The translations under genes and the position numbers were made by a program. Below are positions 4,460 to 37,261 of a DNA stretch of 64,000 nucleotides, piece by piece (the stretch's first letter is position 1; every line of letters begins with the position of its first letter). Source of the DNA: a virus. Taxonomy: Duplodnaviria; Heunggongvirae; Uroviricota; Caudoviricetes. The notes under the pieces were generated by a model. That model was not told the origin of the DNA. It made no database searches and saw nothing but the letters and a program-made list of their open reading frames with translations. The stretch spans positions 194,831 through 258,830 of IMG/VR virus record IMGVR_UViG_3300042890_002891; one strand, 5' to 3'.

Positions 4460-4488
4460 ATTATAGCACTTCGGGTAATATTGGTCAA
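4460..4488 (-). promoter_or_regulatory. consensus sigma70 promoter TTGACC-17-TATAAT (member of a 5-copy family)
   Basis: Minus strand reads GATTGACCAATATTACCCGAAGTGCTATAATACACACAG; drives the FG-GAP lipoprotein gene. Confidence 0.6.
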
Positions 4489-4554
4489 TCAAACTATCGA
4501 ATAAATGTCAAGATTGTATTTTTATGCTGGCAAAAATGCGTTACTAAATATTCT

Positions 4555-5679
4555 ATGCATTGCAAATTTCTAGACCACGGGGTTGCTATTTCTTATGACC
4601 AAGTGGTGAAACCATGTTGTGTTTGGAAATATGATTCTTCATGGACAGCACAAAATCAACTTGGTTCGGTCAATCTTGACACATGGCACCAATCTGATCA
4701 GATTATCAGAATTAAAAATCAACTGGCACAAGATTCTTGGCCCAGCGGTTGTGAGCATTGCCATTCTATAGAAAAAACAGGCAGGGGTGATAGCACTCGT
4801 CTCAACGGTGCTCGGTCCTATGCAGAATACAGCGGCAACGATATTACTTTGGAAATTCGTCCAGGGGCTGTGTGTAACTTTGCTTGTCAAACTTGTTGGC
4901 CTGAGGCCAGCACTCGAGTGGCGCAGTTTCATCATCAGGCTGGAATAATAGATATCAAAGATGTCAACAGTCAAAGCATCAGCAATTTTGATTTTTTGTT
5001 ACCGTTCGCTGATCGAATCCGTAATGTGGTATTGCTAGGCGGTGAACCGTTTTATGACAAAAATTGTTTGAAATTTTTAGACTGGGCTGCTGAACATTTG
5101 TCCGCCAACATTACCATGTTCACAAATGGCAGCATGATTCGATGGGACTGGATCAAAAACTATCAACATCCTATCACTGTGGTGTTCAGCATTGACGCTG
5201 TGGGGAGACCTGCAGAGTACATACGCTATGGTACTGAATGGGATACAGTGCATCAGAACTTTCAAGAAATCCAAAAATACTCTCATGTGGACTTGCGAGT
5301 GAACATTACCTCCTCAGCATACAATTACATTTATATAGAAGAGGTGTTAGATATGCTGCTGGCCAAATGGCCCAGTGTGGTTTCTTTTGGTGTCCCGAGC
5401 GATGCTTACTTGGGAACCCTGGTAGTGCCAGATCAATATCGAGCAGAGATTGTTGCTAGTTTAACTCGATCTATTGAAAAAATTAAATCAACTGCTATTG
5501 AAATAGGACAACAACAAAATGCGGTGAATGCACTGCAATCAATAGTCGATGCATTGGCGACCAACAACTATGATCATGTGTTGCATCAAAAGTTTAAAAA
5601 GTTTGTGGAAGACATGGACCGTGTGAAGAAAATCAACATCCTGGACTATTGCAAATTTACAGCAGATATGTTAGCTTAA
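4555..5679 (+). CDS. radical SAM enzyme
   Basis: CNFACQTCW = CxxxCxxC 4Fe-4S/SAM cluster motif. A GGEPF motif (LLGGEPFYDKNC) is present. No C-terminal Cys-rich SPASM domain seen. Start is uncertain: the ORF opens at 4426 but that would overlap the divergent promoter. Confidence 0.65.
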   Translation: MHCKFLDHGVAISYDQVVKPCCVWKYDSSWTAQNQLGSVNLDTWHQSDQIIRIKNQLAQDSWPSGCEHCHSIEKTGRGDSTRLNGARSYAEYSGNDITLEIRPGAVCNFACQTCWPEASTRVAQFHHQAGIIDIKDVNSQSISNFDFLLPFADRIRNVVLLGGEPFYDKNCLKFLDWAAEHLSANITMFTNGSMIRWDWIKNYQHPITVVFSIDAVGRPAEYIRYGTEWDTVHQNFQEIQKYSHVDLRVNITSSAYNYIYIEEVLDMLLAKWPSVVSFGVPSDAYLGTLVVPDQYRAEIVASLTRSIEKIKSTAIEIGQQQNAVNALQSIVDALATNNYDHVLHQKFKKFVEDMDRVKKINILDYCKFTADMLA

Positions 5680-6813
5680 TAACTGCTGTAGATTTCTCAT
5701 CACATTCCCAGTATTTTTTTGATTGCTCAGTGCTGAGGTCAGTCCTGGAACATTTTGTTCGATTAGTGTGCGGCTAACACTGCTGTTCATGATTTGACCT
5801 TTTGCCAGTTCTAAAGGCAAGCGCAGGCACAACTTAAACAATTCAAGATCTCTCAGAGGAGTCCAGGTCAGGGTGTTTCCAATATGCCAGTGTTGCCAAT
5901 CATTCACAACGGTATTGCACACTGACCAATTAAAATCTTGATCTGTGGCAGGTTGATAGTTACACATCTGATCAGAAAATACTTTCACATGCTTTTGTAA
6001 CTTGAAATATTCTCGATGTAAGCAATCGGGATGTTCCATTAGCAATTGCAAAACACTAGAGCCATGATGCATCAGGTACTGATTGGCAGTGACAGGGCTG
6101 CGTAGCATAAATTCGTCGCCGGGTGCACCTGATGCCAACACACACGGTTCTTGCCAGTGATGTATTTGTCGATATCCCCAATTTTTGCAAATATCAGCAT
6201 GGTTTGCCAACCAAAATGCATCATGGTCACAGTGCTCTGCCCAGACCAATTCATGCGGAATCTGATATCGGCAAAGATAACTATACACCAGTAATGTATC
6301 TACGCCACCACTTAAAAACACACGTATTGGCTCTGTTACCTGTTGCGCATACTGTTGAATTTTTTTACACAGCAAGATATCAATATCATCAACAGTTGAA
6401 TAACCAGTATCGATGCTGCCAATCACATCAAACTTGTGTTCGGTCACTGCAAGATCTGCATGTACTGTGATCAAGCTGTCAGTCCAGGCAGTGCGGTCAG
6501 TTGCAATCAAATTGTTTATGCCGGCGTCATTGATATAAATTGGGAATCCGCGATAGCGATCAGACTGAATTGTTAGTGTGTCATTTACAACAACCAGCGC
6601 ACAAAAATTGCCAGTCAGATGCGGCGTGCTCTGAAACATTATCTGACCAAGTAGCGATTCTAAAGGTCCTGCGTCTGCGTAGCCTTTGTACAAAATTTGC
6701 ACAGGACCAATAGCAAACTGTTTCCATCCGGGATCGGTACTGATTGCAAAACTACTCAGTTGCCACTGGCATGGGTAATTTTCTTGTGGCTGCTGGCTGA
6801 TATGGAAAAACAT
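5671..6813 (-). CDS. asparagine synthetase-like PP-loop amidoligase lacking the N-terminal glutaminase Cys
   Basis: SGGVDT PP-loop motif at about residue 160 of 380, as in the AsnB C-domain or lasso cyclase. The N-terminus is MFFHIS, with no Cys2. Start overlaps the clpP stop as TAATG. Confidence 0.6.
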   Translation of the reverse strand: MFFHISQQPQENYPCQWQLSSFAISTDPGWKQFAIGPVQILYKGYADAGPLESLLGQIMFQSTPHLTGNFCALVVVNDTLTIQSDRYRGFPIYINDAGINNLIATDRTAWTDSLITVHADLAVTEHKFDVIGSIDTGYSTVDDIDILLCKKIQQYAQQVTEPIRVFLSGGVDTLLVYSYLCRYQIPHELVWAEHCDHDAFWLANHADICKNWGYRQIHHWQEPCVLASGAPGDEFMLRSPVTANQYLMHHGSSVLQLLMEHPDCLHREYFKLQKHVKVFSDQMCNYQPATDQDFNWSVCNTVVNDWQHWHIGNTLTWTPLRDLELFKLCLRLPLELAKGQIMNSSVSRTLIEQNVPGLTSALSNQKNTGNVMRNLQQLLS

Positions 6814-7403
6814 TATCTAGTGGTCAGTATCTTGTCAGCAAGTCCGTAGTCTACGGCTTCTTGCGCACTCATGAAATTGTCGCGCTCCATGTCTGCTGTG
6901 AATTCTTCAAATGTTTTGCCTGCTGAGTTATGTTTGACATAGATCTCAGTCAGCACCTGTTTCATCTTGAGAATTTCTGTGACCTGGATCAGCATGTCTG
7001 TGGCCTGTCCACGTGAGCCGCCCGAAGGTTGATGAATCATGTGACGAGCGTTGGGCAAGATAAATCGCTTGCCTTTAGCACCAGAACTAGCCAGCAATGA
7101 TCCCATTGAGCAGGCCTGTCCCATCACAATGGTCTGCACATCAGGCTTGATAAACTGCAGGGTATCATAGATGGCCATGCCTGCTGTGACGCTGCCGCCG
7201 GGTGAGTTGATATACAAACTGATATCTTTGTCAGGATTCTCACTTTCAAGAAACAACATTTGTGCCACAATCAAACTGGCACTATGTTCGTCTACATCTG
7301 AGTCCAGCATGATAATGCGTTCTCGAAGCAAGCGACTGTAGATGTCGTAGCTGCGTTCGCCTTTGCTTGTGGATTCAACAACAATTGGTACTAGATTTGG
7401 CAT
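6813..7403 (-). CDS. clpP: ATP-dependent Clp protease proteolytic subunit ClpP
   Basis: 196 aa with a canonical Ser/His/Asp triad context ([23 protein letters not shown]); RBS AAAGGAATATC. Confidence 0.85.
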
Positions 7404-8380
7404 GATATTCCTTTTTGGATTTTTTGTTTCTGACTATGAACATAATCAGTGAAGTGATGTTTATTGTATAGTATTTTTTCACTAAGAGCAAGAAATTTGG
7501 CTTGCCAGTACTCAGGTGTCTGGTCACACAACACTCCAAGGAATCGGTGCATGGCCGCTGGCTCAGCAAGGTTCAAGTCGGTGATATCCGCAAAGTCTGC
7601 AACATACGGTTCAAACCCTCGATCTGTTAGCCAGCGGGTGCCGCCATCAGGATCATACACCAAAAACGGTCTACATCCTACTATGGGTTTGTAGATTTTT
7701 TCACTTACAAATCCAGTCTGATTGATATCGAAAAACGTTTCAGTCACAATGTTTACCAGGTGTCGTTGCCAATTTTGCATGTGGCCCAGACTCACTATAT
7801 CATTGGGTACGCCGTAATGTGTGGCAGCAGCGTTGGGTGCAAGATTGTCCGGCTCGCAATCAGTTGGCAAAGATCTTACTGCTGAACCAGTGCCTCCCAT
7901 GCTTACTATACCACGGTCCAACAAGTTACTGGCTTCAAGTCTTTGATACAGCTTTTGTCTATGCCAGTGTGGCTTGCGATTCAAACACATGTAGGCTGTA
8001 TCAATCAGAGACGGATCCATTAGAATATCCAATGATGGTGGATTTAAAAATTCATCCACGAACACTGCACAAAAATCCACAGCATGTGGTCCTGCATAAT
8101 ATCCCACAGTCGATATTTCACATTCAAACTCACTATACCAATCAGCAGCAGGAATAGCCGCATCTAACATGGCAATCAGCACAATACAATCAACTGGATT
8201 GTTACGCAACCATTCCAGTACTTGTTCATGATATTGTTTGGTATACCATACAGAATTGATAACAACAGTTCTAGAAGAGTCGGCAGATATGTGCGTGAGC
8301 ATGCGATCAACTATGTGTGTTTCAAACTTCTTGAGTGGAAACTGCAAGCCCCAGCCGTTGTCAAATCTTTGAATAATCAT
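7391..8380 (-). CDS. glycosyltransferase-like protein, paralog A (TEK motif, fucosyltransferase/GT10-like)
   Basis: C-terminal [17 protein letters not shown] is shared with two other genes in the window. Confidence 0.5.
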
Positions 8381-9386
8381 GGTCTAGTATATTGGTTTGA
8401 TTGTTACAAATGTCCGCAAGATGTTGCCGATTGTATTGAGCTATCTCATGTGCAAAACTTAATATTCGTTTTTGTTCTGCACGGCCGCACTCCAGCAAGG
8501 TGCGCATACTTTGTTGCATAAGTCGCCAACGATCGGCACCTTCATACAGGTCATAACTTTCATCCCAGATGCTGTGATATGTTTGGAACCCTATGCTGCG
8601 CAATCTTGCTAGATAGTAACGTGGTGCATATACCAACATGGGTTTGGCAGCCATGATAGGACGTATGGTTTTTTCAGTAGGAAAGAATGTATTTCCTAAG
8701 GTGTAAGTTTCACACACTATCTCCACAGCAAAATTGTGATAGTGCTGCAACAAACTAGTATTGGTTTCTGCTGATGATGCAGGAGTAGCAAATTGATCTC
8801 TTACTGATTTGTTGTCCACACTGGTCACAATCCGTTGATCATACCAAGCAAACATCCGGGCCTGATCATACAGTGATAACCAGTCTGATATGTTTTCTAA
8901 ATCGTGAACATCACCTATCTCTCGTTTCCAAGGAAATGGTTGTATGTGATTCATCATGCTGGCAAAAAGACTAGTGCTATGTGCTTGATACAGAATAGCA
9001 GCTCTGCTGAGTGTAATTCTTCCAACAAACAATCCAAAAGGTTGTTGATATTCTAGTTGTTGTTCTAGTGTGGGTTCTGTGTGTTGCCAATAATCCTGAA
9101 CCATGAAGAAAAAATGACTTATCTTGCTGCATTTCACACGCTGGTATGGCACAAATTCTACAGGATTGCTCCATCCTATTAACTGCACAGTATCAGGAGT
9201 TTGTTTCCTAGCCATGAGCCAGGCGTTGATTGATTTGGTTATGCCCAGTGCCGACAAGCTAGGACCCTCTCCACGTAGGTCCAAGACCAGTGGTTCTCCA
9301 GGTGGGTGCTGATTAAGTTGTTGTTGAAATTGAGTAGGATTATTCCAGCAATCGCCGCTGAATTCTATTGCTATAGGTTCTGTCAT
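8361..9386 (-). CDS. glycosyltransferase-like protein, paralog B
   Basis: TEKTIRPIMAAKPMLVYAPRYYLARLRSIGFQTYHSIWDESYD aligns with paralogs A and C. Confidence 0.5.
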   Translation of the reverse strand: MTEPIAIEFSGDCWNNPTQFQQQLNQHPPGEPLVLDLRGEGPSLSALGITKSINAWLMARKQTPDTVQLIGWSNPVEFVPYQRVKCSKISHFFFMVQDYWQHTEPTLEQQLEYQQPFGLFVGRITLSRAAILYQAHSTSLFASMMNHIQPFPWKREIGDVHDLENISDWLSLYDQARMFAWYDQRIVTSVDNKSVRDQFATPASSAETNTSLLQHYHNFAVEIVCETYTLGNTFFPTEKTIRPIMAAKPMLVYAPRYYLARLRSIGFQTYHSIWDESYDLYEGADRWRLMQQSMRTLLECGRAEQKRILSFAHEIAQYNRQHLADICNNQTNILDHDYSKI

Positions 9387-9416
9387 TCCAATACTTATGG
9401 TGTCACTAAATACACC

Positions 9417-10961
9417 ATGAGAGATTTAATCAACGTACTTGACAGCATAATAACTGAGGTGACCATCAGTAAACCCAAATATGGACCTGGCACTCAATTT
9501 TCTGTTTCCACAGGGTCAGAAGCTGGAAAAAAGTTACTGACATTGTTGCAGCAACAAGGATTTGATGCTACTCCGCCATTGACCAGGCAAGACGACACAG
9601 AATTGAGCGAAAAAGATATCTTAAATCTCCCCACAGTTACATATGGAAAAGGCGGCGACGGTTATATTTTTTCCAATAATGCTGGACAGTCTGTTTTGAT
9701 TGTTGGCAGTTCTAGTACCATTGGGGCAGCGTTTAATGTGTATACTGGAGCCACTGCCGACGACGATGTTGGGAAAATTGCCAATCGCGGCGAAACAGCC
9801 GAAGGTATTCTGGGCGCTGCTATGTTTGCTAAATTCACCAAACGTGAATCTGACGAAGATATCGGCACAGTGACCGCTCAGGACATCGGCAATGTGCTTG
9901 ACAGTTTAAAGCAAACCGGTGAGGATCAATATCAAGTGGAAGTGGAAGATTTTGATAATGAACATGCGGATGTGATTTCGTTTGTGCTGAGACTTAAATC
10001 CGGGCCGTATCAGGATCTCATGGATCCTGCCAAGCGACCGCTGTTGGCCAGTGAATTCTCCAGTGCCGCTGCTTATGTCAACAGTTCGGACGCTGAACGA
10101 TACAGCAAGTATTTTTATATCAATGGCAGGTCAGATCAGATCGTGATCATGGCCGATGGCGTCACAGGTGAAACAGAACAAAAGACCGATGTGTGGGTGT
10201 TTGTCACTGATGAAAATGGCCAGCCACGTAAACTTAGACTCAATACCAGTCTCAAGGTAGGTGGTATTAAACAGTTTGGACAAGTGGGTGGCGACAGTGC
10301 AGAAACCCAACAGATCTTGTGGAATTATTTTGGTGTTGATGCAAGTTCTGCGTTGGCCAAATTTACCAAGGCAATGAAATCCAATTCACCAACAGCAACA
10401 AGAGATGCATTCAAACAAATATATCAATATGCTGCTACCGAACTAGACAACAAATTGAAAAACGCCAGACCTGAAGATGAAGCCAACATAATTGATGCCA
10501 TTGCCACTGGTATCACACACTTTGCTACACTGGGCGATCCCAATGTTGAACTGGTGGACTTCAGCGATGGTGGATTCAAGATTTTGAGATTCAACAAGCT
10601 GGTTGAAAAATTAAAGAATACAGATCTTGAAGCCACTTACGTTGATAAAAAAACTTGGCCAGAAGTGGTCATTCATGAACGCGATAACCCTAATAATAAA
10701 CTGCTGACCATCAGGATGAAAGTAGAGAACAAACCCAAGGGCGGTATCTATGTTCGCACTTACATTGAAAAGGGTCCGCTGTTGGAAAAACTCACCGAAT
10801 ACCGAAAAGCCAGTTGGGACAATGCTCCAGCTGCTACTGGTGCCGAAGATCTAGATGCAGTTACCGGCACACCAAGACTATCGGGTCCTGGTGCACGAGC
10901 AGCAAAGACAAATCGCGAACCCAGAATGGATCGTGCCACCCTAGGGCGCGAGCGTCGTTAA
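9417..10961 (+). CDS. acidic 514 aa hypothetical protein ending in LGRERR
   Basis: Start set at the first ATG after the divergent gene start (the ORF track opens at 9306). The C-terminal ...ATLGRERR is shared with 48717..49601. Confidence 0.55.
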   Translation: MRDLINVLDSIITEVTISKPKYGPGTQFSVSTGSEAGKKLLTLLQQQGFDATPPLTRQDDTELSEKDILNLPTVTYGKGGDGYIFSNNAGQSVLIVGSSSTIGAAFNVYTGATADDDVGKIANRGETAEGILGAAMFAKFTKRESDEDIGTVTAQDIGNVLDSLKQTGEDQYQVEVEDFDNEHADVISFVLRLKSGPYQDLMDPAKRPLLASEFSSAAAYVNSSDAERYSKYFYINGRSDQIVIMADGVTGETEQKTDVWVFVTDENGQPRKLRLNTSLKVGGIKQFGQVGGDSAETQQILWNYFGVDASSALAKFTKAMKSNSPTATRDAFKQIYQYAATELDNKLKNARPEDEANIIDAIATGITHFATLGDPNVELVDFSDGGFKILRFNKLVEKLKNTDLEATYVDKKTWPEVVIHERDNPNNKLLTIRMKVENKPKGGIYVRTYIEKGPLLEKLTEYRKASWDNAPAATGAEDLDAVTGTPRLSGPGARAAKTNREPRMDRATLGRERR

Positions 10962-11530: not shown

Positions 11531-11544
11531 AAATTTGTAGTGGA

Positions 11545-11570
11545 AAAAGCAGCCCGAGTGGACTGCTTTT
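11545..11570 (-). terminator. rho-independent terminator after 11594..12166
   Basis: AAAAGCAG-10 nt loop-CTGCTTTT followed by a T-tract. Confidence 0.45.
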
Positions 11571-11593
11571 ATTTATGCGTATATTATCGCAGA

Positions 11594-12166
11594 TTATTGC
11601 TTTTGTGTTACAGTGTCCAGTTCTTCAAACGCTTGTTGGCTACGACCCTGGGCTTGTGCTTGCAGTCGTATCTGATCCTGACGTTTTTTCAGCACATTGG
11701 CATCACCTGTTGGCAGGGCCACCAGCACATAGCTACGGAATCTGGTGCCATCAGCAACTCGCTTGATTTCTTTGGTTTCGACCCCGGTAATATCCACGCC
11801 TGGGCACATGCCGCGAATGGCAATTTCACTGGTTTCGTGGCTGGCTTCAGATGTGTCCATCATAAAAATCTTGGATTGCTGACTGACTTTTCCGCCTGCT
11901 GCCATGCAAATCTTGCCATACGCAAACAGCTTGGCCTTGTAGTCTGCCATGCTCATGTCTGTGCTGACTGCACTGCCATTGGCATACACTGCACTGTTAC
12001 TCACAGGCAGTTCAGTCATCCATTTAGGTGCTCGATCAATAGCAGATGTCACTGCTTTTTCTTGTCGCTGACGTTCTTCATAGGCACGCCGTTCGTACTG
12101 TTCTTTGGGGGTTGAGCCACATGCGGCCAACAAGGCCACAGTAACCAATGCAATAAAATATTTCAT
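11594..12166 (-). CDS. lipoprotein (190 aa)
   Basis: Signal peptide plus lipobox LLAAC-GS; hydrophilic mature region. Confidence 0.55.
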   Translation of the reverse strand: MKYFIALVTVALLAACGSTPKEQYERRAYEERQRQEKAVTSAIDRAPKWMTELPVSNSAVYANGSAVSTDMSMADYKAKLFAYGKICMAAGGKVSQQSKIFMMDTSEASHETSEIAIRGMCPGVDITGVETKEIKRVADGTRFRSYVLVALPTGDANVLKKRQDQIRLQAQAQGRSQQAFEELDTVTQKQ

Positions 12167-12174
12167 ATTGATCC

Positions 12175-12297
12175 TTATTTAGATTTAATCCACTCGCCGG
12201 CCTTGCCAAGATCAGCCCCAGCTCCACTTACTGCTCCACCCACTGTGCCGCAGGCACAAAGAACCAGAGCAACCATGCATGTCAAAATGTATTTCAT
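12175..12297 (-). CDS. small lipoprotein, entericidin-like (40 aa)
   Basis: Not in the ORF track (<60 aa). MKYILTCMVALVLCACGTVGGAVSGAGADLGKAGEWIKSK: lipobox then a Gly/Ala/Ser-rich amphipathic tail, as in EcnA/EcnB. RBS AGGATTTTGT. Confidence 0.35.
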   Translation of the reverse strand: MKYILTCMVALVLCACGTVGGAVSGAGADLGKAGEWIKSK

Positions 12298-12363
12298 ACA
12301 AAATCCTAAAAAGTTATTGATACGTAACTATAACACAAGATTGAATTTAGGTCAAGTCTGATT

Positions 12364-12927: not shown

Positions 12928-13259
12928 GGACATTGTGCTAACTCCATGAGTTTCTGATTCAGCAGCCAATCTGTACGACTTGACCCACGTGATATATTTT
13001 CATTGTACTGACCTGGGTTGGTAATTATCAACCAGGGTTGTAGTGCATTGCTGGCCCGTGCAAACAGTCTGTCATCTCTGGTGCTGCGCATACTTTGCAA
13101 CATGGCAATCTGTTGTGCCTTTTGGGAACATGTGATCTGAAAATAATCCAGGTCATATGCGGCCATGGGCTGCTGTGAGTTTGAAGCACATCCGCTACAC
13201 AGGATTGCAAGTGTAACGAAGATGCCAAATACGTGCTTTGATTTGAGCGACTTGTTCAT
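12924..13259 (-). CDS. membrane/secreted protein (111 aa)
   Basis: N-terminal hydrophobic segment VFGIFVTLAILCSGCAS; overlaps the next gene by 65 nt in another frame. Confidence 0.45.
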   Translation of the reverse strand: MNKSLKSKHVFGIFVTLAILCSGCASNSQQPMAAYDLDYFQITCSQKAQQIAMLQSMRSTRDDRLFARASNALQPWLIITNPGQYNENISRGSSRTDWLLNQKLMELAQCP

Positions 13260-13419
13260 TCCATTCTCCTCGGCTTTGATTTTCTAACCAGCGCACAATA
13301 CGCTGTTGATTGGCACAATCATTGGGTATCAGACTCACATCCACAGGAGGTGATCTTTGCACAATGGACATGCAGCCACTTAGAACCAGAGCTGCTATGG
13401 GTATCAAGAGTTTTTTCAT
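13195..13419 (-). CDS. small lipoprotein (74 aa)
   Basis: MKKLLIPIAALVLSGC is a canonical lipobox; Pro-containing mature region. Confidence 0.4.
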   Translation of the reverse strand: MKKLLIPIAALVLSGCMSIVQRSPPVDVSLIPNDCANQQRIVRWLENQSRGEWNEQVAQIKARIWHLRYTCNPV

Positions 13420-13754
13420 GGGCTCCACCGTAGTAAAAACATCACAAGGTCTTGGTCAGTTGCAAGTTCAACAGTGGCTCCTTCAAGGATAGCATTGTTG
13501 CGCTCACACCAGGCAACCAGTTCAGCATCATGCTCAACCCAGTACGCAAAGTCACTGAGTATGACCAGCCTGTGGCCAAAGCCCAGTTCTGACGGTGCCA
13601 CAGCAAAGCGGCGCCCTGCACCTAGATCTTGATTGAGGTCTTGTTCAGCGATCAAGATCTTGTCCCGGATGTTTGGCACGGCGCTGATATTGCACACGGC
13701 TTTTTTCTGTTCGGCTACGAAACGGCGTGTCGCGACTATACAGTTCCACAGCAC
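13416..13754 (-). CDS. hypothetical protein (112 aa)
   Basis: ORF immediately downstream of the promoter/operator at 13813..13859. Confidence 0.4.
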   Translation of the reverse strand: MLWNCIVATRRFVAEQKKAVCNISAVPNIRDKILIAEQDLNQDLGAGRRFAVAPSELGFGHRLVILSDFAYWVEHDAELVAWCERNNAILEGATVELATDQDLVMFLLRWSP

Positions 13755-13812
13755 GTCTGCGCTGTCTAGGCAACTGTATCACAAAAGATAAAGGTTTCAT
13801 AAGTTCAAAAGA

Positions 13813-13850
13813 AATCCGGTTAGTGCTGTTATTATAACACTAACCGGATT
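13813..13850. promoter_or_regulatory. candidate operator: perfect 13 bp inverted repeat AATCCGGTTAGTG-N12-CACTAACCGGATT bracketing the -10 hexamer
   Basis: Read directly from the sequence; one half-site lies in the promoter spacer and the other spans the predicted transcription start. Confidence 0.5.
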
Positions 13851-13859
13851 ATTGGTCAA
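13831..13859 (-). promoter_or_regulatory. consensus sigma70 promoter TTGACC-17-TATAAT (family member) overlapped by a 13 bp palindrome
   Basis: Minus strand reads GTTGACCAATAATCCGGTTAGTGTTATAATAACAG. Confidence 0.55.
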
Positions 13860-24135: not shown

Positions 24136-25428
24136 ATGTCAGTTCCTTTAGATAGATTATACAACTTTTTGCATGACGTTGTCAATCATGATATAACAAT
24201 TTATCGCTTTTGGCCACATGGCTCAAAAAAACTTGAAGATCTAACGCCGTTATATTCATACGTAGATTGGTCTAAAATGATGACCAGGCCACCAACAATT
24301 TTTCATGACCAGGAGCCGCTGAATTTTTGTTATTGGAATCTAGATGATTTTGCTCGACTATGTGTGGACAAACACCAATCGAATTCTTTATATTTAGAAG
24401 ACAAATATATTGAGTACCAAAAATCACGGCACCTTAAAGGATCAATTCATACCAGTCTGTATGATTATGTTTTGCTTGTGCATTCGGAAAAAAATAGCTC
24501 AGAGGCAGATATCTACCTCCAACATGGATTCTTACCTGTGTACTACTGGAGTCATGCTGTGATTGCAGCTGATTGGTTTAGATATGCTGCGCATGATCCT
24601 GTGTTGCAATATAATACCGCCACGTTTATGCAAGATTTTTTAATATACAATCGTGCTTGGTCAGGTACTAGAGAATATAGACTAGCATTTGCTGATCAAT
24701 TGATTAAAGCAGGTTTAGTGGAATATTGCCGCACCAGTTTTGCACCTGTGGATTCAGACATGCACTATAGTCAACACAAGTTTGAGAATTCCAATTTGGC
24801 AATCACTAATGCAAATCTAGAAACAGTATTGCCTGCAAACACACATAATTCTCATGCCAGTGCCGATTACAACAATCAGGATTATGCTCAAACAGGCATG
24901 GAAATTGTGCTGGAAACCTTGTTTGATGATTCACGATTGCATCTCACAGAAAAGGCGCTGCGCCCTATTGCGTGTGGCAAACCCTTTATGCTGGTTGCCA
25001 CTACCGGTAGCTTAGAATATTTGCGCAGTTACGGATTTGAGACCTTTGGAGATCTTATTGATGAGTCTTATGATCTTGAAACAGATCCGGTGGCTAGATT
25101 GGCCGCTGTGATTCAGGAAATCACCAGGATTGCTGCCATGTGTCCAGCGGATAAAATCATACTATGGAATCAACTGCACAAAATTGCTGAGAGAAACAAG
25201 CAGAGATTTTTTTCAGCTGCCTGGCAAGCCAGCATAGTACAAGAATATGTTGACAATATGAATCAAGCCATAATTACTGTCAATCAACATTGTACCGGAA
25301 AACACTGGAAGAAATTTCAAGAACTAGATCGTATCTTGGGAATCAACGATACTCGTTCACAAAAAGAAATAGATCAGGTATTGAATTACCTAGCTCTTAA
25401 GAACAGTTCCGGACCAGTGGTCGGGTAA
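24136..25428 (+). CDS. glycosyltransferase-like protein, paralog C
   Basis: LTEKALRPIACGKPFMLVATTGSLEYLRSYGFETFGDLIDESYD aligns with paralogs A and B; its start lies 2 nt from the divergent dehydrogenase start. Confidence 0.5.
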   Translation: MSVPLDRLYNFLHDVVNHDITIYRFWPHGSKKLEDLTPLYSYVDWSKMMTRPPTIFHDQEPLNFCYWNLDDFARLCVDKHQSNSLYLEDKYIEYQKSRHLKGSIHTSLYDYVLLVHSEKNSSEADIYLQHGFLPVYYWSHAVIAADWFRYAAHDPVLQYNTATFMQDFLIYNRAWSGTREYRLAFADQLIKAGLVEYCRTSFAPVDSDMHYSQHKFENSNLAITNANLETVLPANTHNSHASADYNNQDYAQTGMEIVLETLFDDSRLHLTEKALRPIACGKPFMLVATTGSLEYLRSYGFETFGDLIDESYDLETDPVARLAAVIQEITRIAAMCPADKIILWNQLHKIAERNKQRFFSAAWQASIVQEYVDNMNQAIITVNQHCTGKHWKKFQELDRILGINDTRSQKEIDQVLNYLALKNSSGPVVG

Positions 25429-27736: not shown

Positions 27737-27737
27737 T

Positions 27738-28949: not shown

Positions 28950-28953
28950 TATT

Positions 28954-30366: not shown

Positions 30367-30370
30367 AAGA

Positions 30371-30688: not shown

Positions 30689-30863
30689 ATCCTTTCACTG
30701 TGTTAGTCCTTATTGGCATACCCCCAGGTACCAGCCGGGTTTTGATTTTATTCAAGGACAGTGTCTCAACCTACGTGACTTATGTTCACATGCCACAGTA
30801 GCAGTGGGCCTAGGAATTCCACCGCACTATCGAACAGCACCATCTCCTTGGTCATGCACAGTA

Positions 30864-30892
30864 ATTATACAGGCACTGTGGCCTGTTGTCAA
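30864..30892 (-). promoter_or_regulatory. perfect consensus sigma70 promoter TTGACA-17-TATAAT
   Basis: Minus strand reads TTGACAACAGGCCACAGTGCCTGTATAAT; long leader before 30371..30688. Confidence 0.55.
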
Positions 30893-30893
30893 A

Positions 30894-31577: not shown

Positions 31578-31592
31578 GATAGTTCCTTTGGG

Positions 31593-32396
31593 TTATTTTG
31601 CGCTGTTGGTCTGTACTGTGGGAGTCACAACACCGTTGATGACCAAGGTTTGACCTTTGAAGTTGGCAATAGCATCTGGCAACTTACGCATGGCATCTGC
31701 TTGTGCTTCGGCCATCAGCAAGGGAATTGCCATTGGGTTGGCCTGCATTGACTCATTACGCTTGCGAGCAGTGGCCACTTTGACTTCTTCGGTCTTGAAC
31801 TCGTTCTTGGCCTTGACCAATTCGTTAGCACTGGCCACAACTGAGTCAGCTGGTACAATATTACGGATTAGCACTTGACTAATACTGATACTACCGTCCA
31901 GTTTTTCTTCGGCAAGATTGCGAACAATTTCTTCCTTGATAAAGGTTTCCATGTCGCTACGGGCATCTGCCATGTCCAGGGCCTCATACTTACGAGCGGC
32001 CTTGTAGATAGCGTTACGAGCATTCTGCACAATGTAATTGTACATCACATAGGTATCACCTTTGAACTCGGTATGGAAGCTCTTGTTCTTGGTTGCATAC
32101 AATTCACTTACTTGCTGGGGGTTGATGTTGTAAACAACCACTGCATCAAAGTCTTTCATGGTGCTGTTGTCTCGGGCAACAGGAGTCATATTCTCCAGCA
32201 CCACGTTTACGTCCTTGATGGGGAACGTAAGAACCTCACCAATGATTGATTGATTGAAAGACCCAGGAAGTAGTTCACCACTCTGGACCTGTTTATCAAA
32301 ACCCACTCGCACACCAACTTCACCAGTTTCAATACGAGTACAACCTGTTGCCAGTACAGCAGCAGCCAAGATAGAGAGAGTTAAAATACGCTTCAT
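31593..32396 (-). CDS. SPFH/band-7 domain lipoprotein (HflC/prohibitin-like)
   Basis: Lipobox LATGC, then a beta-rich N-domain and a long A/E/K-rich coiled coil typical of SPFH proteins. Confidence 0.5.
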   Translation of the reverse strand: MKRILTLSILAAAVLATGCTRIETGEVGVRVGFDKQVQSGELLPGSFNQSIIGEVLTFPIKDVNVVLENMTPVARDNSTMKDFDAVVVYNINPQQVSELYATKNKSFHTEFKGDTYVMYNYIVQNARNAIYKAARKYEALDMADARSDMETFIKEEIVRNLAEEKLDGSISISQVLIRNIVPADSVVASANELVKAKNEFKTEEVKVATARKRNESMQANPMAIPLLMAEAQADAMRKLPDAIANFKGQTLVINGVVTPTVQTNSAK

Positions 32397-32457
32397 TGTG
32401 TTTCCTTAAAATAAAATTACAATCACTGTCATTACCATTACCACTGCCAGTGACACA

Positions 32458-32486
32458 ATTATACTGTAACCTATACTTTTTGTCAA
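32458..32486 (-). promoter_or_regulatory. perfect consensus sigma70 promoter TTGACA-17-TATAAT upstream of the SPFH gene
   Basis: Minus strand reads TTGACAAAAAGTATAGGTTACAGTATAAT. Confidence 0.55.
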
Positions 32487-32586
32487 GGCTAATTGTTCCT
32501 TGCCGTCCATCTTTCTAACAGCAGTGATGCCAAAGTGTATGAGAACAGCAATAATAGCAAACGCTAACCAAAGTTTAATCATGATA

Positions 32587-32799
32587 TTAAACGTCCAGGT
32601 CCATCTCGCAGGCTTCTTTCACAAGAGCCAGCACTTCATCCAGTGTGTTGCACAAGATCTTGGCAGTGACATAGTCACCTTTTTTGTTGCGTCCACTTGC
32701 CTCTACCATGAAACCGTTGTCATAACGATTCACAGTGTATGATTCATTTACCTTGGTCAGCTTATCGCTGAGTCGATTTACTGTTTTTGCTGTTGCCAT
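32587..32799 (-). CDS. hypothetical protein (70 aa)
   Basis: Preceded by the conserved about 35 nt leader element. Confidence 0.4.
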   Translation of the reverse strand: MATAKTVNRLSDKLTKVNESYTVNRYDNGFMVEASGRNKKGDYVTAKILCNTLDEVLALVKEACEMDLDV

Positions 32800-32834
32800 T
32801 TGATTTCTCCTAAAAAATTACTATTCATGATTGA
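32800..32834 (-). repeat. conserved 5-prime leader element, copy 1 (TCAAYCATGAAYAGTAATTTTTAGGARAAATCA)
   Basis: About 88% identical to copy 2 at 33063..33099; contains the RBS. Confidence 0.45.
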
Positions 32835-33062
32835 TTAAATGATGCGTCCAGTCACAGCATACACCAACTGATCCAATGGTGCATCATAGTTTTTACCGTT
32901 GCGTCGAAGCATCCAGATTTGTTCCACTAGCTCTTTAGCATCATATGGGCCATGACTCGAGGGTAATTCGTCACGACTTTCTAGTTCTTCGATCAGGTCC
33001 TCTGTTTCAAAATCTCCAAGATTAACATCAACTTCAACTTCTGTGTAAACTGTTTTGTGCAT
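32835..33062 (-). CDS. acidic hypothetical protein (75 aa)
   Basis: Preceded by copy 2 of the leader element. Confidence 0.4.
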   Translation of the reverse strand: MHKTVYTEVEVDVNLGDFETEDLIEELESRDELPSSHGPYDAKELVEQIWMLRRNGKNYDAPLDQLVYAVTGRII

Positions 33063-33099
33063 GATTTTTCCTAAAAATTACTGTTCATGGTTGACCCGG
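33063..33099 (-). repeat. conserved 5-prime leader element, copy 2
   Basis: See copy 1. Confidence 0.45.
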
Positions 33100-33300
33100 C
33101 TAGGCCATTCTATCTATGTTTTGTCCCGCACGGTTCATTCTACGATTCATTTCAATTCTTGCTTGTTCATCAACTTTGGCATCGGCCTGTACACGTCGTT
33201 CTTCTAGTCTAAGTTCTTCGTGACGCTTGTCCACCTTTTTGATTTCCATCTGTCGATACACTTCTGCATTTTGTGCAGATATTCTGCTGACTTCTGTCAT
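33100..33300 (-). CDS. coiled-coil hypothetical protein (66 aa)
   Basis: R/E/Q-rich helical ORF; ATGA-type coupling with the ligase gene. Confidence 0.4.
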   Translation of the reverse strand: MTEVSRISAQNAEVYRQMEIKKVDKRHEELRLEERRVQADAKVDEQARIEMNRRMNRAGQNIDRMA

Positions 33301-34664
33301 AGTTTTTCTCCTGCTTCAAATCCACGAAAGCGTACAAAGCGCGGAAATCTCAATGAGTATGATCCGTCTTGGTTTTGTGTGACTGCGTCCGCTTCGACTT
33401 CAACCACGTCACCAAGTAGCTCATTCCGACTGGCCCAATACTCATCACGAAGAGTATCGCTAAACCCACTGCCAACATTAACGCAAATTCTACGGTCATC
33501 ATCAACTCCTTCACAAATTATAGCACCCAACCGGCCCTGATTGCGACCGGTACCTTCTTCAAAACCCACAATATTAAGATCAACTGTGATTGTGGGTTTC
33601 CATTTCATCCAAAAACTAGATCGCTTGCACTCATATGGTGCGCCAAGATCCTTGATCATGATACCTTCAAATCCGTTGGCCACAGCATCCTGTGCATATC
33701 GATTCATGATGTCATGCCCTTCGGCTGTGTCCAGATCCACAGTGATACCGTCCATGAGACGCAGACAATCTGTAGCATCAAACCGTGCTCGAGATCCTGT
33801 TAAAATATCAAGTCGCTTGCTCTGTTGTGCATTATAGTGTCCTTCTTGAAAACTGTCAAGTGGAATGATATCAAACACATGATACACCATGTCCGTGGTT
33901 TCGGCATTTGTTTTGCGTTGTGCCTGCCGCATGAGTTGTTGAAAGCTGGCACCTACAATCTCGCCGTCCAGCACATATCGTCCGCCAAACGCACCAATCA
34001 GTTTGCGGTTGGCAGCAATGGCTTCGGCCACGTGCGGAAAGTTTTCAAACGGCTTGCCATTGCGGCTGTACAGTGTAACACTGGCACCTTGTACCACTGC
34101 CAGAACTCGCACACCATCCAGTTTGACCTCCAGGCGTTTGATGCCTTTCATCTTGGCCGGACGATCAGTTGAATCTTGCGCCAGCTGGCAGGTAAAGGTA
34201 GGTATCTTCCAGGATGTTTTGCCCAGAACCTTGTTGAGTGTTTTCTCACTGATGCCGCAGCGCAGGTCCTTGATCAAGACTCGTCTACACATGCCATTCC
34301 ACTGCTCCGAATCAAACAGTTCACTCACTTGTTCAATGCGATCTCTAGCAGCATGCCCGGTTACTCCGCGAGTTCTCAAGTCCTCACACAAGCCCCAGAA
34401 TATAGGCCACGGGTTGGGCTGTCCGGTTAGACCCTCAGTCTCCGGCACCTGGCGAACATTGTACACATAGAAAGGATTGTATGCCAGGTAACAGTTGAAC
34501 AAAAAACCCTGTGCGCCGGCACTGCCCAATTTTGAAGCCATCAAGGCTTTTTCAATCACTCGTTCTTTGTGCAAGCGGCTGTCGCTGGATTCAAGGTCGC
34601 GAATCCAGTCAGCTACCACTACGTGTTTCCAAAACTCATTGTTGTCAAAGTCAATGTCATGCAT
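33297..34664 (-). CDS. ATP-dependent DNA ligase
   Basis: KLDGVR adenylation motif I (KxDG), DGEIV motif and an OB-fold C-terminus; 455 aa. Confidence 0.8.
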   Translation of the reverse strand: MHDIDFDNNEFWKHVVVADWIRDLESSDSRLHKERVIEKALMASKLGSAGAQGFLFNCYLAYNPFYVYNVRQVPETEGLTGQPNPWPIFWGLCEDLRTRGVTGHAARDRIEQVSELFDSEQWNGMCRRVLIKDLRCGISEKTLNKVLGKTSWKIPTFTCQLAQDSTDRPAKMKGIKRLEVKLDGVRVLAVVQGASVTLYSRNGKPFENFPHVAEAIAANRKLIGAFGGRYVLDGEIVGASFQQLMRQAQRKTNAETTDMVYHVFDIIPLDSFQEGHYNAQQSKRLDILTGSRARFDATDCLRLMDGITVDLDTAEGHDIMNRYAQDAVANGFEGIMIKDLGAPYECKRSSFWMKWKPTITVDLNIVGFEEGTGRNQGRLGAIICEGVDDDRRICVNVGSGFSDTLRDEYWASRNELLGDVVEVEADAVTQNQDGSYSLRFPRFVRFRGFEAGEKL

Positions 34665-34667
34665 TAT

Positions 34668-35126
34668 TTAATTCTCCTGCGGGCGGGCCAAAGCACATAC
34701 TAATAGAAATTGTTCATAGGCTGCACGAACACTGGCATGTGTCATGAGTTTGTCTGCTTCCGTCTGCAGGGCACGAATACCTGCTTCGGCAATATCGTGT
34801 GAACTGGCTCCGCTCAACGTACAAAGTTCATCACCAAACTCTTTAGCCAATTTCTTCCATGCCTTTTGTTGTGCAGGTGTGATAGGAGTGCGAACAGGCC
34901 GCATTTCACTGGCTTTATGCATTGCCCGAATCATAGCCTCTTCGGCTACTCGGCTGGCCGCCATCATGGCCGCATAGTTAGGGTCAATGTTGTATCGGCG
35001 ACTAGCACCCCCTGGGTAAACCATCACAAGATGAGTACCTTTAGAAAAACTATCCGCAAGATCGTTGTCATACTCAGACACAGGAACATATCTGCGGCCA
35101 CGTTTTTCGTAGTAGATTTTTTTCAT
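34668..35126 (-). CDS. hypothetical protein (152 aa)
   Basis: Start at the ATGA overlap with the upstream stop. Confidence 0.45.
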   Translation of the reverse strand: MKKIYYEKRGRRYVPVSEYDNDLADSFSKGTHLVMVYPGGASRRYNIDPNYAAMMAASRVAEEAMIRAMHKASEMRPVRTPITPAQQKAWKKLAKEFGDELCTLSGASSHDIAEAGIRALQTEADKLMTHASVRAAYEQFLLVCALARPQEN

Positions 35127-35476
35127 TCTTTTAACTTCTTCCAAACAAATCTTTTTTCAGCATCAATAGCAAACTCAGTGCGCGACCCATTAACATCATT
35201 GCACCAGTTACTGACTATATCATAACTACCCCAACTTCCTTCGGGTGCATTTTCCCTAATCCAAGTTGCTATAGCCCAAAACATTTGACGATTGGCAGTA
35301 TCAGCAACAGCCAATGCACGGTCGTAATCTTTTGCTAACATTGATTCGCAAAACCCACATGGCGTAAACCCCTTAATCAAATAGTTTTGAAGTGTTTCGC
35401 GGGTATGCAATGGGATTTCCATACCCATGTATCTCAAATCATCCTCGGCTTCACTAAAATCAATCAATGTATTCAT
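35123..35476 (-). CDS. hypothetical protein (117 aa)
   Basis: ORF; contains a CGFCES motif. Confidence 0.45.
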   Translation of the reverse strand: MNTLIDFSEAEDDLRYMGMEIPLHTRETLQNYLIKGFTPCGFCESMLAKDYDRALAVADTANRQMFWAIATWIRENAPEGSWGSYDIVSNWCNDVNGSRTEFAIDAEKRFVWKKLKE

Positions 35477-35832
35477 TACCAGCTACTGTTATAAAAAACT
35501 TTTAGTCCCAAAAACACTTCTGCTTTGGCTGCTCGGACAAACGCAAGATCACTGTCTCGATATTCGTCGTCGCTGTCCTGCCCAAAAAAGAATCCGCTAG
35601 TGGCAGGCAATTGTTTGTGAGTAACTGCCTGTTCCAGAGCTTCAAGATCTTCCCAGGCGAGTTCTAGTTCAACGCCGTTGAATGAGTCGTACTCTAAATC
35701 TTTTGATTCAGCAAGTCGCTCCATCCAGCCATGCAGGTTAGGATGTTTACGCCAGTAGGCAATTTCACGCTGTCCAGTTTCGTCATTTGTTGCTGCCTTG
35801 GCGGCAGCATAAGCATACATGTCCAGTCCCAT
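35476..35832 (-). CDS. acidic hypothetical protein (118 aa)
   Basis: ORF. Confidence 0.45.
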   Translation of the reverse strand: MGLDMYAYAAAKAATNDETGQREIAYWRKHPNLHGWMERLAESKDLEYDSFNGVELELAWEDLEALEQAVTHKQLPATSGFFFGQDSDDEYRDSDLAFVRAAKAEVFLGLKVFYNSSW

Positions 35833-36077
35833 TACATTACCTTTCTAATTGCAGCCATTGCTTCGGGAAAACGTTTCATGGTGTCAGTTGCACTGTCCAG
35901 CTCAAGCAAGGCAGCTTGTTCCAGCAAACTGATGGCATAGGCCACATCCGCTGCACCCACTGCCACCATCCAGTCCTGAATTTCTTCTGGAGTCTTCAGG
36001 TTCATCACAATGTTCATGTCTGACACTTGGTATCGATTAAAACCCAATTGAGCAAAGTCAATTTTGCGATTGGTCAT
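35832..36077 (-). CDS. hypothetical protein (81 aa)
   Basis: Start placed right after the upstream stop (TAACATG). Confidence 0.4.
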   Translation of the reverse strand: MTNRKIDFAQLGFNRYQVSDMNIVMNLKTPEEIQDWMVAVGAADVAYAISLLEQAALLELDSATDTMKRFPEAMAAIRKVM

Positions 36078-36078
36078 G

Positions 36079-36462
36079 TTACCTAACTCCAAATACTGCT
36101 GCCATCAAGGCGTCAACTTCTGCTTGAGTAACAACCACTGGCTCAGTGCGGCGAACACGAGCAGGCTTTGCAGTCTTGACACGAACAGTTTTGGTGAGAT
36201 GTTTTTTTGCAGTTTTAGCAGGGCGGAGTTTGACTGCCACTTCGCCTGCCAGTGCTTCACGCACCGCATCAGTGTCAGCAAAGCCTGCTAGATTCTGCAG
36301 ATAACACACAGCACCGGCCTTGTCCATTGCACTTGGCAACGGCACAATATTCACATCAGTGTCGCCCAGCTTGGCCAATTGCTTGCCCCGAGCTTCTGAG
36401 TTGGCAAAACGAACTTTGACAGCGCCTTTGAGAACGGAAGTACCAGCGAAAGTATAAAGCAT
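36079..36462 (-). CDS. hypothetical protein with a basic C-terminal tail (127 aa)
   Basis: Immediately downstream of family promoter 36491..36519. Confidence 0.45.
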   Translation of the reverse strand: MLYTFAGTSVLKGAVKVRFANSEARGKQLAKLGDTDVNIVPLPSAMDKAGAVCYLQNLAGFADTDAVREALAGEVAVKLRPAKTAKKHLTKTVRVKTAKPARVRRTEPVVVTQAEVDALMAAVFGVR

Positions 36463-36490
36463 CTAAAACTCCTTTTGTGTTTAAGCGTTA

Positions 36491-36519
36491 ATTATAACAG
36501 ATTGGCGAATATTGGTCAA
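36491..36519 (-). promoter_or_regulatory. consensus sigma70 promoter TTGACC-17-TATAAT (family member)
   Basis: Minus strand reads GGTTGACCAATATTCGCCAATCTGTTATAATTAAC. Confidence 0.55.
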
Positions 36520-36866
36520 CCGTTTTGTTTTGTGTGCTTGCACTGGCCGCGGAATCGAAATCCCGAGCAAGTGCAGCTCAAGTTGCCGTTTAACCGAGTC
36601 ACGGTATAAACCTCACCCTTGCTGCCGGCCACGGTCCAGGTCTCACCTGCAGGTGGTGCCACGTCAACAGAAACATTCCATTGATCAGGCACAATTTTGA
36701 ATTTGCGTCCACGGATGTCAATCCGCATGGGCGTACGAAATTTGTGTGCTGCTCCTGTGCCAAACTTCACATAGGCATACATCTTGCTCTTGCCATCGTC
36801 CATCAGGTACACATGATTGGGTGCCGTGTCACCGGACCATTCAGTTGTTTCAGCAAACCATTTCAT
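36516..36866 (-). CDS. SWIM-type zinc-finger protein (116 aa)
   Basis: C-terminal CTCSGFRFRGQCKH = CxCx(n)CxH SWIM signature. Confidence 0.5.
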   Translation of the reverse strand: MKWFAETTEWSGDTAPNHVYLMDDGKSKMYAYVKFGTGAAHKFRTPMRIDIRGRKFKIVPDQWNVSVDVAPPAGETWTVAGSKGEVYTVTRLNGNLSCTCSGFRFRGQCKHTKQNG

Positions 36867-37054
36867 TTTTCAGCCTTTGCAATCAGGCTCATACCTTTGT
36901 TCATGACTGTTTGCAGGGCCACTCGCTGTTCAGCAGTGAGTTCGTTGCGTTGTTTTGCAGCCAGCATGGATTCCAGAGTTTCTAACAAAAACCCGCTGAC
37001 GCTGTGATCAATGCGATACTGTTCACAGATTGAGATAGCTTGAGTAATGTCCAT
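36863..37054 (-). CDS. hypothetical protein (63 aa)
   Basis: RBS AACAGGAGCAGAGA; downstream of family promoter 37084..37112. Confidence 0.45.
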   Translation of the reverse strand: MDITQAISICEQYRIDHSVSGFLLETLESMLAAKQRNELTAEQRVALQTVMNKGMSLIAKAEK

Positions 37055-37073
37055 TCTCTGCTCCTGTTTTGCT

Positions 37074-37226
37074 CTATGTGTGTATTATAGCATTTCGAGC
37101 AATATTGGTCAACCAACCCAAAATAGCCAACCACACAATCCATTCTACCACTGTAAATTCGCTGCGATGATAGTACAACAACATCTTTCGTTTGAACTTT
37201 TCATAACGGGCAGCAGCTGGTTGCAT
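37074..37226 (-). CDS. possible leaderless small membrane protein (50 aa) between tandem promoters
   Basis: MQPAAARYEKFKRKMLLYYHRSEFTVVEWIVWLAILGWLTNIARNAIIHT. The ATG lies 6-7 nt after the -10 of promoter 37233..37261; not in the ORF track; speculative. Confidence 0.2.
   Translation of the reverse strand: MQPAAARYEKFKRKMLLYYHRSEFTVVEWIVWLAILGWLTNIARNAIIHT
37084..37112 (-). promoter_or_regulatory. consensus sigma70 promoter TTGACC-17-TATAAT (family member)
   Basis: Minus strand reads GGTTGACCAATATTGCTCGAAATGCTATAATACACACAT. Confidence 0.55.
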
Positions 37227-37232
37227 GTGTGT

Positions 37233-37261
37233 ATTATAGCATCATGGGTATTATTGGTCAA
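37233..37261 (-). promoter_or_regulatory. consensus sigma70 promoter TTGACC-17-TATAAT (family member, tandem with 37084..37112)
   Basis: Minus strand reads GGTTGACCAATAATACCCATGATGCTATAATACACACAT. Confidence 0.5.

Follow-up and report, generated by a model that had tools for sequence, protein, structure and literature searches.

The early promoters of bacteriophage T4 (Pe) are "uber" promoters composed of an UP element, a −35 box, a TGn motif, and a −10 box; they show extra consensus beyond the hexamers and are read by the host sigma70 RNA polymerase (RNAP) (PMC2988021). Promoter-early stem-loop (PeSL) cassettes have been described for RB49/phi1, PST/T4, and nt-1/KVP40 (PMC2839356, PMC4122927), and the jumbo phage PA5oct, which is rifampicin-sensitive and uses the host RNAP, has 32 TTGAC/TATAATA promoters at start sites seen by RNA sequencing (PMC7318152). 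Here we describe a promoter family in a 64,000-nucleotide stretch of an uncultivated member of the Caudoviricetes (IMG/VR record IMGVR_UViG_3300042890_002891, positions 194,831 to 258,830), hereafter called the window, in which five nearly identical copies had been noticed (the original prediction). We assign a probability of about 80% to the reading that these are strong promoters used by unmodified host sigma70-type holoenzyme and that they form the core of portable cassettes with Shine–Dalgarno (SD)-led and leaderless forms. The best explanation of the observations is a portable unit of ~70 nt placed before individual small accessory genes, many of which encode envelope proteins.

Like T4 Pe, the family occurs in many copies per genome, joins excellent −35, TGn, and −10 elements to extra consensus, and stands before small nonessential genes; reading by the unmodified host sigma70 RNAP is known for T4 and probable here. 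It differs from T4 Pe, with their GTTTAC-like −35 box and clear A/T-rich UP element, in a −35 region of the form GGTTGACC without an UP signal and in the ~12–14% of copies that are leaderless, and early timing, which has been shown for T4, is for the present family only suggested by the analogy. With the PeSL cassettes it shares a composite conserved unit extending through SD and ATG, a sigma70-like N17 promoter, clustering in hyperplastic regions before ORFans, and whole-gene swaps beside cassettes between close relatives. Unlike in PeSL, however, the defining stem-loop is found at only ~17% of sites (2/7 in the window), breakpoints at cassettes show no excess over intergenic DNA, some copies are leaderless, an upstream open reading frame (ORF) can contain the promoter of the next gene, and the lineage is nearest to PA5oct and Atu_ph07 (~45% helicase identity). 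The leaderless form, the facultative stem-loop, the absent UP element, the embedded promoters, and the non-T4 lineage set the family apart from T4 Pe and PeSL. PA5oct, the nearest cultivated relative, has the same TTGAC and TATAATA boxes and depends on host RNAP, but its first 50 kb contain only three perfect hexamer pairs, none with a GG flank, TGn, or an ATG 6 nt past the −10 box, which suggests that the extended cassette and the leaderless form are peculiar to the environmental clade. Our findings extend the concept of regulatory cassettes within hyperplastic regions beyond T4-like phages, to jumbo phages only distantly related to them, and do not overturn current understanding.

A promoter family of the window and its clade

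An exact search of the window for TTGACC-N17-TATAAT gave exactly five matches, all on the minus strand and all at the positions of the original prediction (4460..4488, 13831..13859, 36491..36519, 37084..37112, and 37233..37261). The mean number of matches in dinucleotide shuffles was 0.02, and five were never reached. At each site, five of six −35 bases (TTGACC) and six of six −10 bases (TATAAT) agree with the sigma70 consensus across a 17-bp spacer, and TGn (TGC or TGT) directly precedes the −10 box in all five, which makes them promoters of the −35/extended −10 type. The claim of shared flanks holds in part: GGTTGACCAATAWT is exact upstream of three sites while the remaining two are one base off (GA-TTGACC and AG-TTGACC), and TATAATACACACA follows three sites (4460, 37084, and 37233), as it does a sixth site of more degenerate sequence (797..825). 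A repeat finder gave these same promoter sites as the three top-ranking direct-repeat families of the window (D1–D3), and the three repeat copies of ~45 bp noted earlier reappear as D3, with three 48-nt copies of 79–81% identity at 4452, 37076, and 37225. The tandem copies at 37084 and 37233, which had been placed about 150 bp apart, are spaced by 149 bp.

Window sites matching the sigma70 consensus in at least 11 of 12 bases numbered 12 on the gene (minus) strand, which bears 82 of the ~92 genes, and none on the other. We trained a position weight matrix (PWM) on hexamer sites from loci anchored by the ligase gene, a choice independent of the motif, and took the best score in shuffled sequence as the threshold. 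Nine window sites exceeded it, all on the minus strand: the five above and those at 797..825, 3171..3199, 62623..62651, and 50703..50731. This matrix replaced a stricter one made from motif-selected sites, which had returned the five known sites alone, the ascertained columns being fixed. Perfect TTGACA-N17-TATAAT matches at 24156, 30864, 32458, and 33831 were rejected as family members, as they fall under the PWM threshold and lack the family's flanking consensus. The one at 33831..33859 (minus strand) lies inside the DNA ligase ORF and may either act as an internal promoter or have arisen by chance.

The window holds more than five members, and the family extends across the clade. The pattern TTGACCAATAWT-N8-TGYTATAAT, with 20 specified bases, is found in more than 116 IMG/VR loci, contigs of 300–345 kb among them, where we estimate that chance would give less than one match; 52 of the 116 motif loci listed show 68–91% DNA identity with the window. 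The consensus of these motif-selected sites reads ttt..GGTTGACCAATAATTcCCaAt.TGCTATAATA...aCATAg..AAaaaGGAGCC....ATG. As a sample free of ascertainment, we took 80 loci by ligase homology alone (69–97% amino acid identity, 1.4 Mb in total) out of at least 300 ligase-bearing relatives in IMG/VR. On the gene (ligase) strand these loci contain 221 copies of TTGAC-N18-TATAAT, and on the other strand none. The positions not used for selection show tttGG before the −35 box, TGn at 68% of the sites, an A following TATAAT, aTAg at the probable start, and AAGGAG, giving the clade consensus tttGGTTGAC...TGcTATAATA..aTAg..AAGGAG..ATG. Only 16% of the hexamer-defined sites have the exact TTGACCAATAWT form, and the five sites of the window are therefore near-consensus members of a broader family. 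Consensus beyond the hexamers is family-wide and comprises the GG before the −35 box, spacer preferences (CAATAAT..CCC), the A that follows TATAAT, and the aTAg of the start region; spacers and leaders are similar at ~42–47% pairwise identity throughout the clade rather than within single genomes. A literature search with the promoter motif string returned only unrelated plant W-boxes and primers.

Shine–Dalgarno-led and leaderless forms of the cassette

In L080, a 90% relative of the window, five consecutive small genes each have their own GGTTGACCAATATTCACCGAAATGCTATAATACACACATACACAGCAACAAGGA-N-ATG, the preceding stop codon lying 0–15 nt upstream. Because each of these genes bears the full arrangement, the conserved unit is the whole cassette, consisting of the promoter, a leader of ~24 nt, and the SD. 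Of 458 unique sites, 300 have an SD core downstream, and the remainder include the leaderless form. The distance d from TATAAT to ATG is bimodal among 457 unique hexamer-defined sites. The SD-led peak at d = 30 contains 123 ATGs, 119 of which open ORFs, and a second peak at d = 6 contains 75, with 63 opening at least 40 codons; the neighboring distances hold 13 (d = 5; 5 opening at least 40 codons) and a single ATG (d = 7; none opening that many). As the CATA of the leader consensus could yield CATG as a by-product, we compared the SD content of the two groups. An SD and start codon follow 216/230 sites with ATH at d = 6 compared with 8/63 sites with an open ATG there (P = 2e-37, Fisher test), a difference indicating that the SD-led and leaderless forms are alternatives. 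Leaderless copies make up ~12–14% of cassettes and have 51 distinct N-termini.

The clearest window example is the promoter P37233 (37233..37261, PWM score 47.5), in which TTGACC, the 17-nt spacer, and TGC-TATAAT are followed by ACACAC and the ATG of a 50-amino acid (aa) ORF on the minus strand (37074..37226). This ORF, a putative membrane-protein gene, has a positive coding score, and its suggested leaderless start finds support in nine distinct orthologues of 42–50 aa (the window copy and those in L005, L020, L023, L068, L081, L140, L145, and L146), all nine of which start 6 nt past TATAAT; the agreement is one of sequence geometry and extends to the most distant orthologues, with ~37–54% identity over the aligned part. 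In all nine, the last ~12 codons also contain the next promoter, FWLT...AII being encoded by TTTTGGTTGACC...GCTATAATA. In the window copy these codons (WLTNIARNAIIHT) encode P37084 (37084..37112), the bases of which double as coding sequence and promoter. Given that the embedding is found in all nine orthologues, the 149-bp tandem pair is a conserved module. The core of the 50-aa protein (R-T-N-FTVVELLVIVGLL) was considered as a type IV prepilin N-terminus with a Glu at position 5 after the Phe, but the likeness is one of resemblance only, with no Pfam match.

Two further window genes appear to be leaderless. The sixth family member P797 (TTGACTGATATT...AGTATAAT, 797..825, PWM score 24.6) is followed by ACACAC and, 6 nt past its −10 box, the ATG of a 150-aa gene at 338..790 with a "cysteine dioxygenase"-like PHROG label; d = 6 is kept in L138 and L122 though the six intervening bases differ. 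The weaker member P62623 (TTGACT...TGTATTAT, 62623..62651, PWM score 18.1) is followed by TAACAC and the ATG of a 166-aa gene at 62116..62616, whose PHROG match begins at residue 1 and profile position 1 and whose orthologue in L125 also has d = 6. All four features are on the minus strand. Relatives of the window contain a recurrent leaderless family of ~110 aa, beginning with MxRKKRxDR, that is GIY-YIG-like, one member scoring 23.1 bits against a Pfam cutoff of 22.6 and another 19.3; its copies were gathered by the leaderless-cassette criterion and are all leaderless for that reason. Carriers of this family are L014, L018, L025, L028, L029, L033, L042, L058, L061, L069, and others, and the window has none.

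A leaderless phage message is known from the lambda cI gene, whose transcript from PRM starts at the A of the AUG and has no SD (Brock et al. 2008, as cited in PMC5312081). The ATGs at d = 6 likewise lie at the probable transcription start without an SD, but where lambda offers a single regulatory gene, the leaderless form is here a routine option, with at least 51 distinct N-termini and a GIY-YIG-like nuclease family included. Differential RNA sequencing of phiKZ revealed no leaderless phage transcript, and the 5′ untranslated regions of AR9 are 26–491 nt long. Leaderless expression may be a routine alternative in a phage relying elsewhere on strong SD sites. More speculatively, the shared promoter could serve a two-mode system in which the leaderless genes (for small membrane proteins, GIY-YIG-like nucleases, and other products) form a separately controlled translational class, favored, e.g., on phage-altered ribosomes or initiation factors, with the noncontact positions acting as a regulator switch and the cassettes also moving genes between variable regions; we regard this combination as improbable.

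Recognition of the promoters

According to our preferred reading, the housekeeping RNAP of the host would recognize TTGACC, the 17-bp spacer, TGn, and TATAAT without any phage factor and would start transcription at the A located 7 nt past the −10 box. Indirectly, the sharp peak of ATGs located exactly 6 nt past TATAAT agrees with that position. In one form of the cassette, the transcript would then carry a conserved leader of ~24 nt with a strong SD and an ATG ~30 nt past TATAAT; in the other, the ATG would be at +1 and the leaderless mRNA would be translated without an SD. An intrinsic terminator before ~1 in 6 copies would insulate the cassette from transcripts arriving from upstream; in other copies, the cassette overlaps the last bases of the gene before it, so that promoters stack along gene arrays. 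The suggestion that this is a homogeneous phage promoter set of housekeeping-sigma consensus gains support from the strand bias, the placement upstream of genes, the SD spacing, and the promoters of PA5oct.

Jumbo phages such as phiKZ and AR9 often encode their own transcription machinery, and the window covers just 64 kb of a genome that the contigs of relatives suggest to be ~300–345 kb long, so a phage-encoded sigma factor or phage-modified polymerase might instead read the cassettes; the GG and the spacer preferences are atypical of sigma70. The match to every sigma70 element is nevertheless essentially perfect, the closest cultivated relative makes do with host RNAP, and no sigma factor or RNAP subunit was seen among the scanned window proteins. 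We consider a dedicated phage polymerase or sigma factor very improbable.

The conserved flanks had also been taken as a hint of an UP element or a phage factor site. The first idea is not supported, as the clade sites show neither an A/T-rich signal nor a conserved column at −40 to −60: the A+T content is 0.54–0.61 at −60 to −46 and 0.67 in the T-rich 5-nt bin before the GG, compared with 0.56 overall. The upstream "ttt" is explained as the tail of a facultative terminator, and we discarded the UP element on the basis of the background A+T and the unconserved upstream columns. A terminator-like hairpin with a T-rich tail is present just 5′ of 78/458 sites compared with 16/458 control positions and is thus enriched but facultative. 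In the window, only P797 and P37233 have one: AAAACCGGTGCAATGCCGGTTTT at 829..851 (−19.5 kcal/mol, z = −3.4) and, with a T-run that ends the porin gene, AAAACCCGCTGAGGCGGGTTTT at 37269..37290 (−17.8 kcal/mol, z = −2.5), each on the minus strand and directly upstream of its promoter.

As to the second idea, known contacts by RNAP do not explain the spacer and GG preferences, and a superimposed regulator site is therefore possible, in which the GG at −37/−36, CAATAAT, the C-rich middle of the spacer, and the start region ACACACATA would form an operator for a phage or host regulator that switches the whole family on or off in concert, e.g., for the shut-off of early genes. Such an operator could add to, rather than replace, recognition by sigma70. 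Its flank and spacer positions keep information in the sample defined by hexamers alone, the spacer and leader similarity is clade-wide, and the shut-off of T4 early promoters is likewise unexplained. On the other side, the site has no clear dyad symmetry by our own reading, no candidate regulator was identified, and the exact TTGACCAATAWT form is so infrequent among hexamer-defined sites that the extra positions look like soft preferences; T4 early promoters, too, show extra consensus without a known binding factor. On balance we think an operator unlikely.

What we observe is the sequence anatomy, with its clade-wide conservation, strand bias, and bimodal distance to the start codon; the recognition itself, the start site, the early timing, and the translation of leaderless mRNAs are inferred. 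Several points weigh against recognition by host sigma70 as we propose it. The spacer CAATAAT..CCC and the GG before the −35 box are unexplained by known sigma70 contacts, and the first 50 kb of PA5oct lack both the extended consensus and the peak at d = 6. In well-studied Gram-negative hosts, leaderless mRNAs are seldom translated efficiently. The only genome match is a metagenome-assembled genome (MAG) labeled as Bacteroidota, evidently with binned phage contigs. The clade consensus offers a ready rule for annotating promoters, transcription starts, and translation starts in environmental jumbo phages without a cultured member, at least 300 ligase-bearing relatives being available, and the compact, well-defined cassettes, predicted to be very strong, are candidate parts for synthetic biology.

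Gene movement, host, and cassette genes

The cassettes are associated with regions that vary between relatives. In relatives of ~70–75% identity, the ligase, 35488–35770, 40705–41227, and nrdB are conserved, whereas 35.8–40.7 kb is not. Homology with L080 ends at 37226, 7 nt past the −10 box of P37233, and resumes at 36081; over these ~1.1 kb, four window genes are replaced by the five-cassette array, which is found at the same locus in L143. Cassette genes also move between variable regions. The MAG phage, ~90% identical to the window, has window-type genes at the 36–37 kb locus (L140) and the array genes g1, g3, and g5 (94–98% aa identity) on another contig beside a homologue of the window's left end, and the SWIM-like gene at 36516–36866 is found in L122 and L101 within the region syntenic to 0.3–7.4 kb. 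Near other cassettes, 2.3 kb upstream of P4460 are absent from L132, whose promoter directly follows ClpP; ~376 bp behind the P13831 leader (a 51-aa ORF and its 3′ flank) are missing from L130, a 91–96% relative whose copy of this promoter and leader directly adjoins the following lipoprotein gene; and L125 has a 215-aa gene inserted 5 nt upstream of P62623. L138 has, in opposite orientation, a Recombination endonuclease VII gene (438..746 on the minus strand; PF02945, E = 1.4e-23) that is absent from the window; its insertion point falls precisely between the −35 box of the P797 equivalent and the preceding terminator. Away from the cassettes, a 117-aa gene on the minus strand (35123..35476) is cleanly absent in L140 and swapped for an unrelated 118-aa gene in L023 and L095, with no cassette at the junctions.

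The break in L080 and the array genes and SWIM-like gene found at other loci could mean that the repeats are primarily recombination modules, i.e., homology patches for gene exchange, insertion, or excision, as has been proposed for PeSLs and mini-circles, and that their uniformity comes from this role or from gene conversion. Breakpoints within 40 nt of a cassette numbered 5 out of 31, a clear excess relative to the whole window (P = 1e-4). The excess vanishes against intergenic DNA, which makes up 5.8% of the window (P = 0.94), and one of the cassette-edge breakpoints is the Endonuclease VII insertion and another an ordinary gene indel; although cassette genes do move, these data do not establish cassettes as preferred recombination junctions. 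Concerted evolution fared no better: cassettes within a locus are no more alike than cassettes of different loci, although this test is confounded by the orthologous promoters that the loci share. The perfect −35/TGn/−10 geometry, the absolute strand bias, and the fixed distance to the start codon would moreover be superfluous for a mere recombination site. We hold a primary role in recombination to be distinctly unlikely and retain the promoter as the core function of the cassette.

The window comes from an uncultivated jumbo phage and covers a region devoted to replication and nucleotide metabolism. Among its large ORFs are those for a ribonucleotide reductase large subunit, an ATP-dependent ligase, a DnaB-like helicase, and a second helicase; ClpP, a UDP-glucose-dehydrogenase-like protein, an SPFH protein, and a Gram-negative porin are encoded as well. 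No GenBank phage matched the region in a megablast search. At the protein level, the jumbo phages PA5oct and Atu_ph07 come closest among annotated relatives, with helicase identities of ~45–47%; the phage is distantly related to these two and is not T4-like. DNA ~90% identical to the window is present in the RefSeq MAG "Haliscomenobacter sp. EUL_031" (NZ_JBBAKG01 contigs 1, 31, 36, 49, 57, and 110), the source of the loci L122, L125, L127, L128, L130–L133, L136–L138, and L140; with a second relative at ~72–77%, this MAG holds contigs of at least two phages of the clade. Other matches in genome collections were singletons only. Owing to the sigma70 consensus and the heavy SD use, we read the MAG label as a binning artefact, with jumbo-phage contigs binned into a bacterial genome, and consider a Bacteroidota host unlikely. 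The presence of a porin and of lipoprotein signal peptides points to a diderm host. The porin gene (37319..38200, minus strand; 293 aa) matches Pfam Porin_4 at E = 8.6e-24. Its 283 environmental homologues, which are close to it in length, presumably belong to this phage clade as well; the best 120 of them are unnamed proteins with 51–97% identity and indicate no host.

The products of cassette genes are mostly ORFans and envelope proteins, among them an FG-GAP lipoprotein, several small lipoproteins, and hydrophobic peptides of 28 and 50 aa, a content that suggests an envelope-directed early program, possibly for superinfection exclusion. Those of the variable region gave no family matches in Pfam and PHROG scans. 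All features that follow are on the minus strand. The promoter P4460 (4460..4488, PWM score 41.6) has the leader ACACACAGAGCAACAAAGGA and an ATG at 4434 and would drive the FG-GAP-repeat lipoprotein gene at 3208..4434 (lipobox LTAC). P37084 (PWM score 43.1), with the leader ACACACATAGAGCAAAACAGGAG and an ATG at 37054, would drive a 63-aa ORFan with an SD (36863..37054). In P36491 (36491..36519, PWM score 40.8), the TGA within TTGACC ends the SWIM-like ORF that lies upstream (36516..36866), and the AAGGAG and ATG at 36462 downstream belong to a 127-aa ORFan (36079..36462) that this promoter would drive. The weaker candidate at 3171..3199 (TTGCAT...AGTTATAAT, PWM score 20.1) stands upstream of the 28-aa hydrophobic ORF (3066..3152), and a possible degenerate member below the PWM threshold (TTGACCTAAATT...TGTTATAGT, 12327..12355) upstream of two small lipoprotein genes.

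P13831 (13831..13859, PWM score 25.7) is overlapped by a 15-bp hairpin with a following U-run (13813..13850; −26.5 kcal/mol, z = −7.1), the spacer forming the 5′ arm, the −10 box lying in the loop, and the first transcribed bases forming the 3′ arm. The hairpin sequence is kept in relatives, and a T-to-C variant in one of them turns a G–U pair into a G–C pair. We infer that the hairpin terminates read-through RNA yet cannot form in RNA started at P13831, which lacks the 5′ arm. Directly behind this promoter is a very basic 51-aa ORF without an obvious SD (MKPLSFVIQLPRQRRR..., 13645..13800), present in L053 and absent from L130. We considered it as ArfA-like and dropped the idea, as the resemblance was by eye only and had no Pfam or PHROG support. 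The genes at 12175..12297, 11594..12166, 13195..13419, 3208..4434, and 3066..3152, which lie behind promoters of the family, have lipoboxes (LCAC, LAAC, LSGC, or LTAC) or are tiny and hydrophobic.

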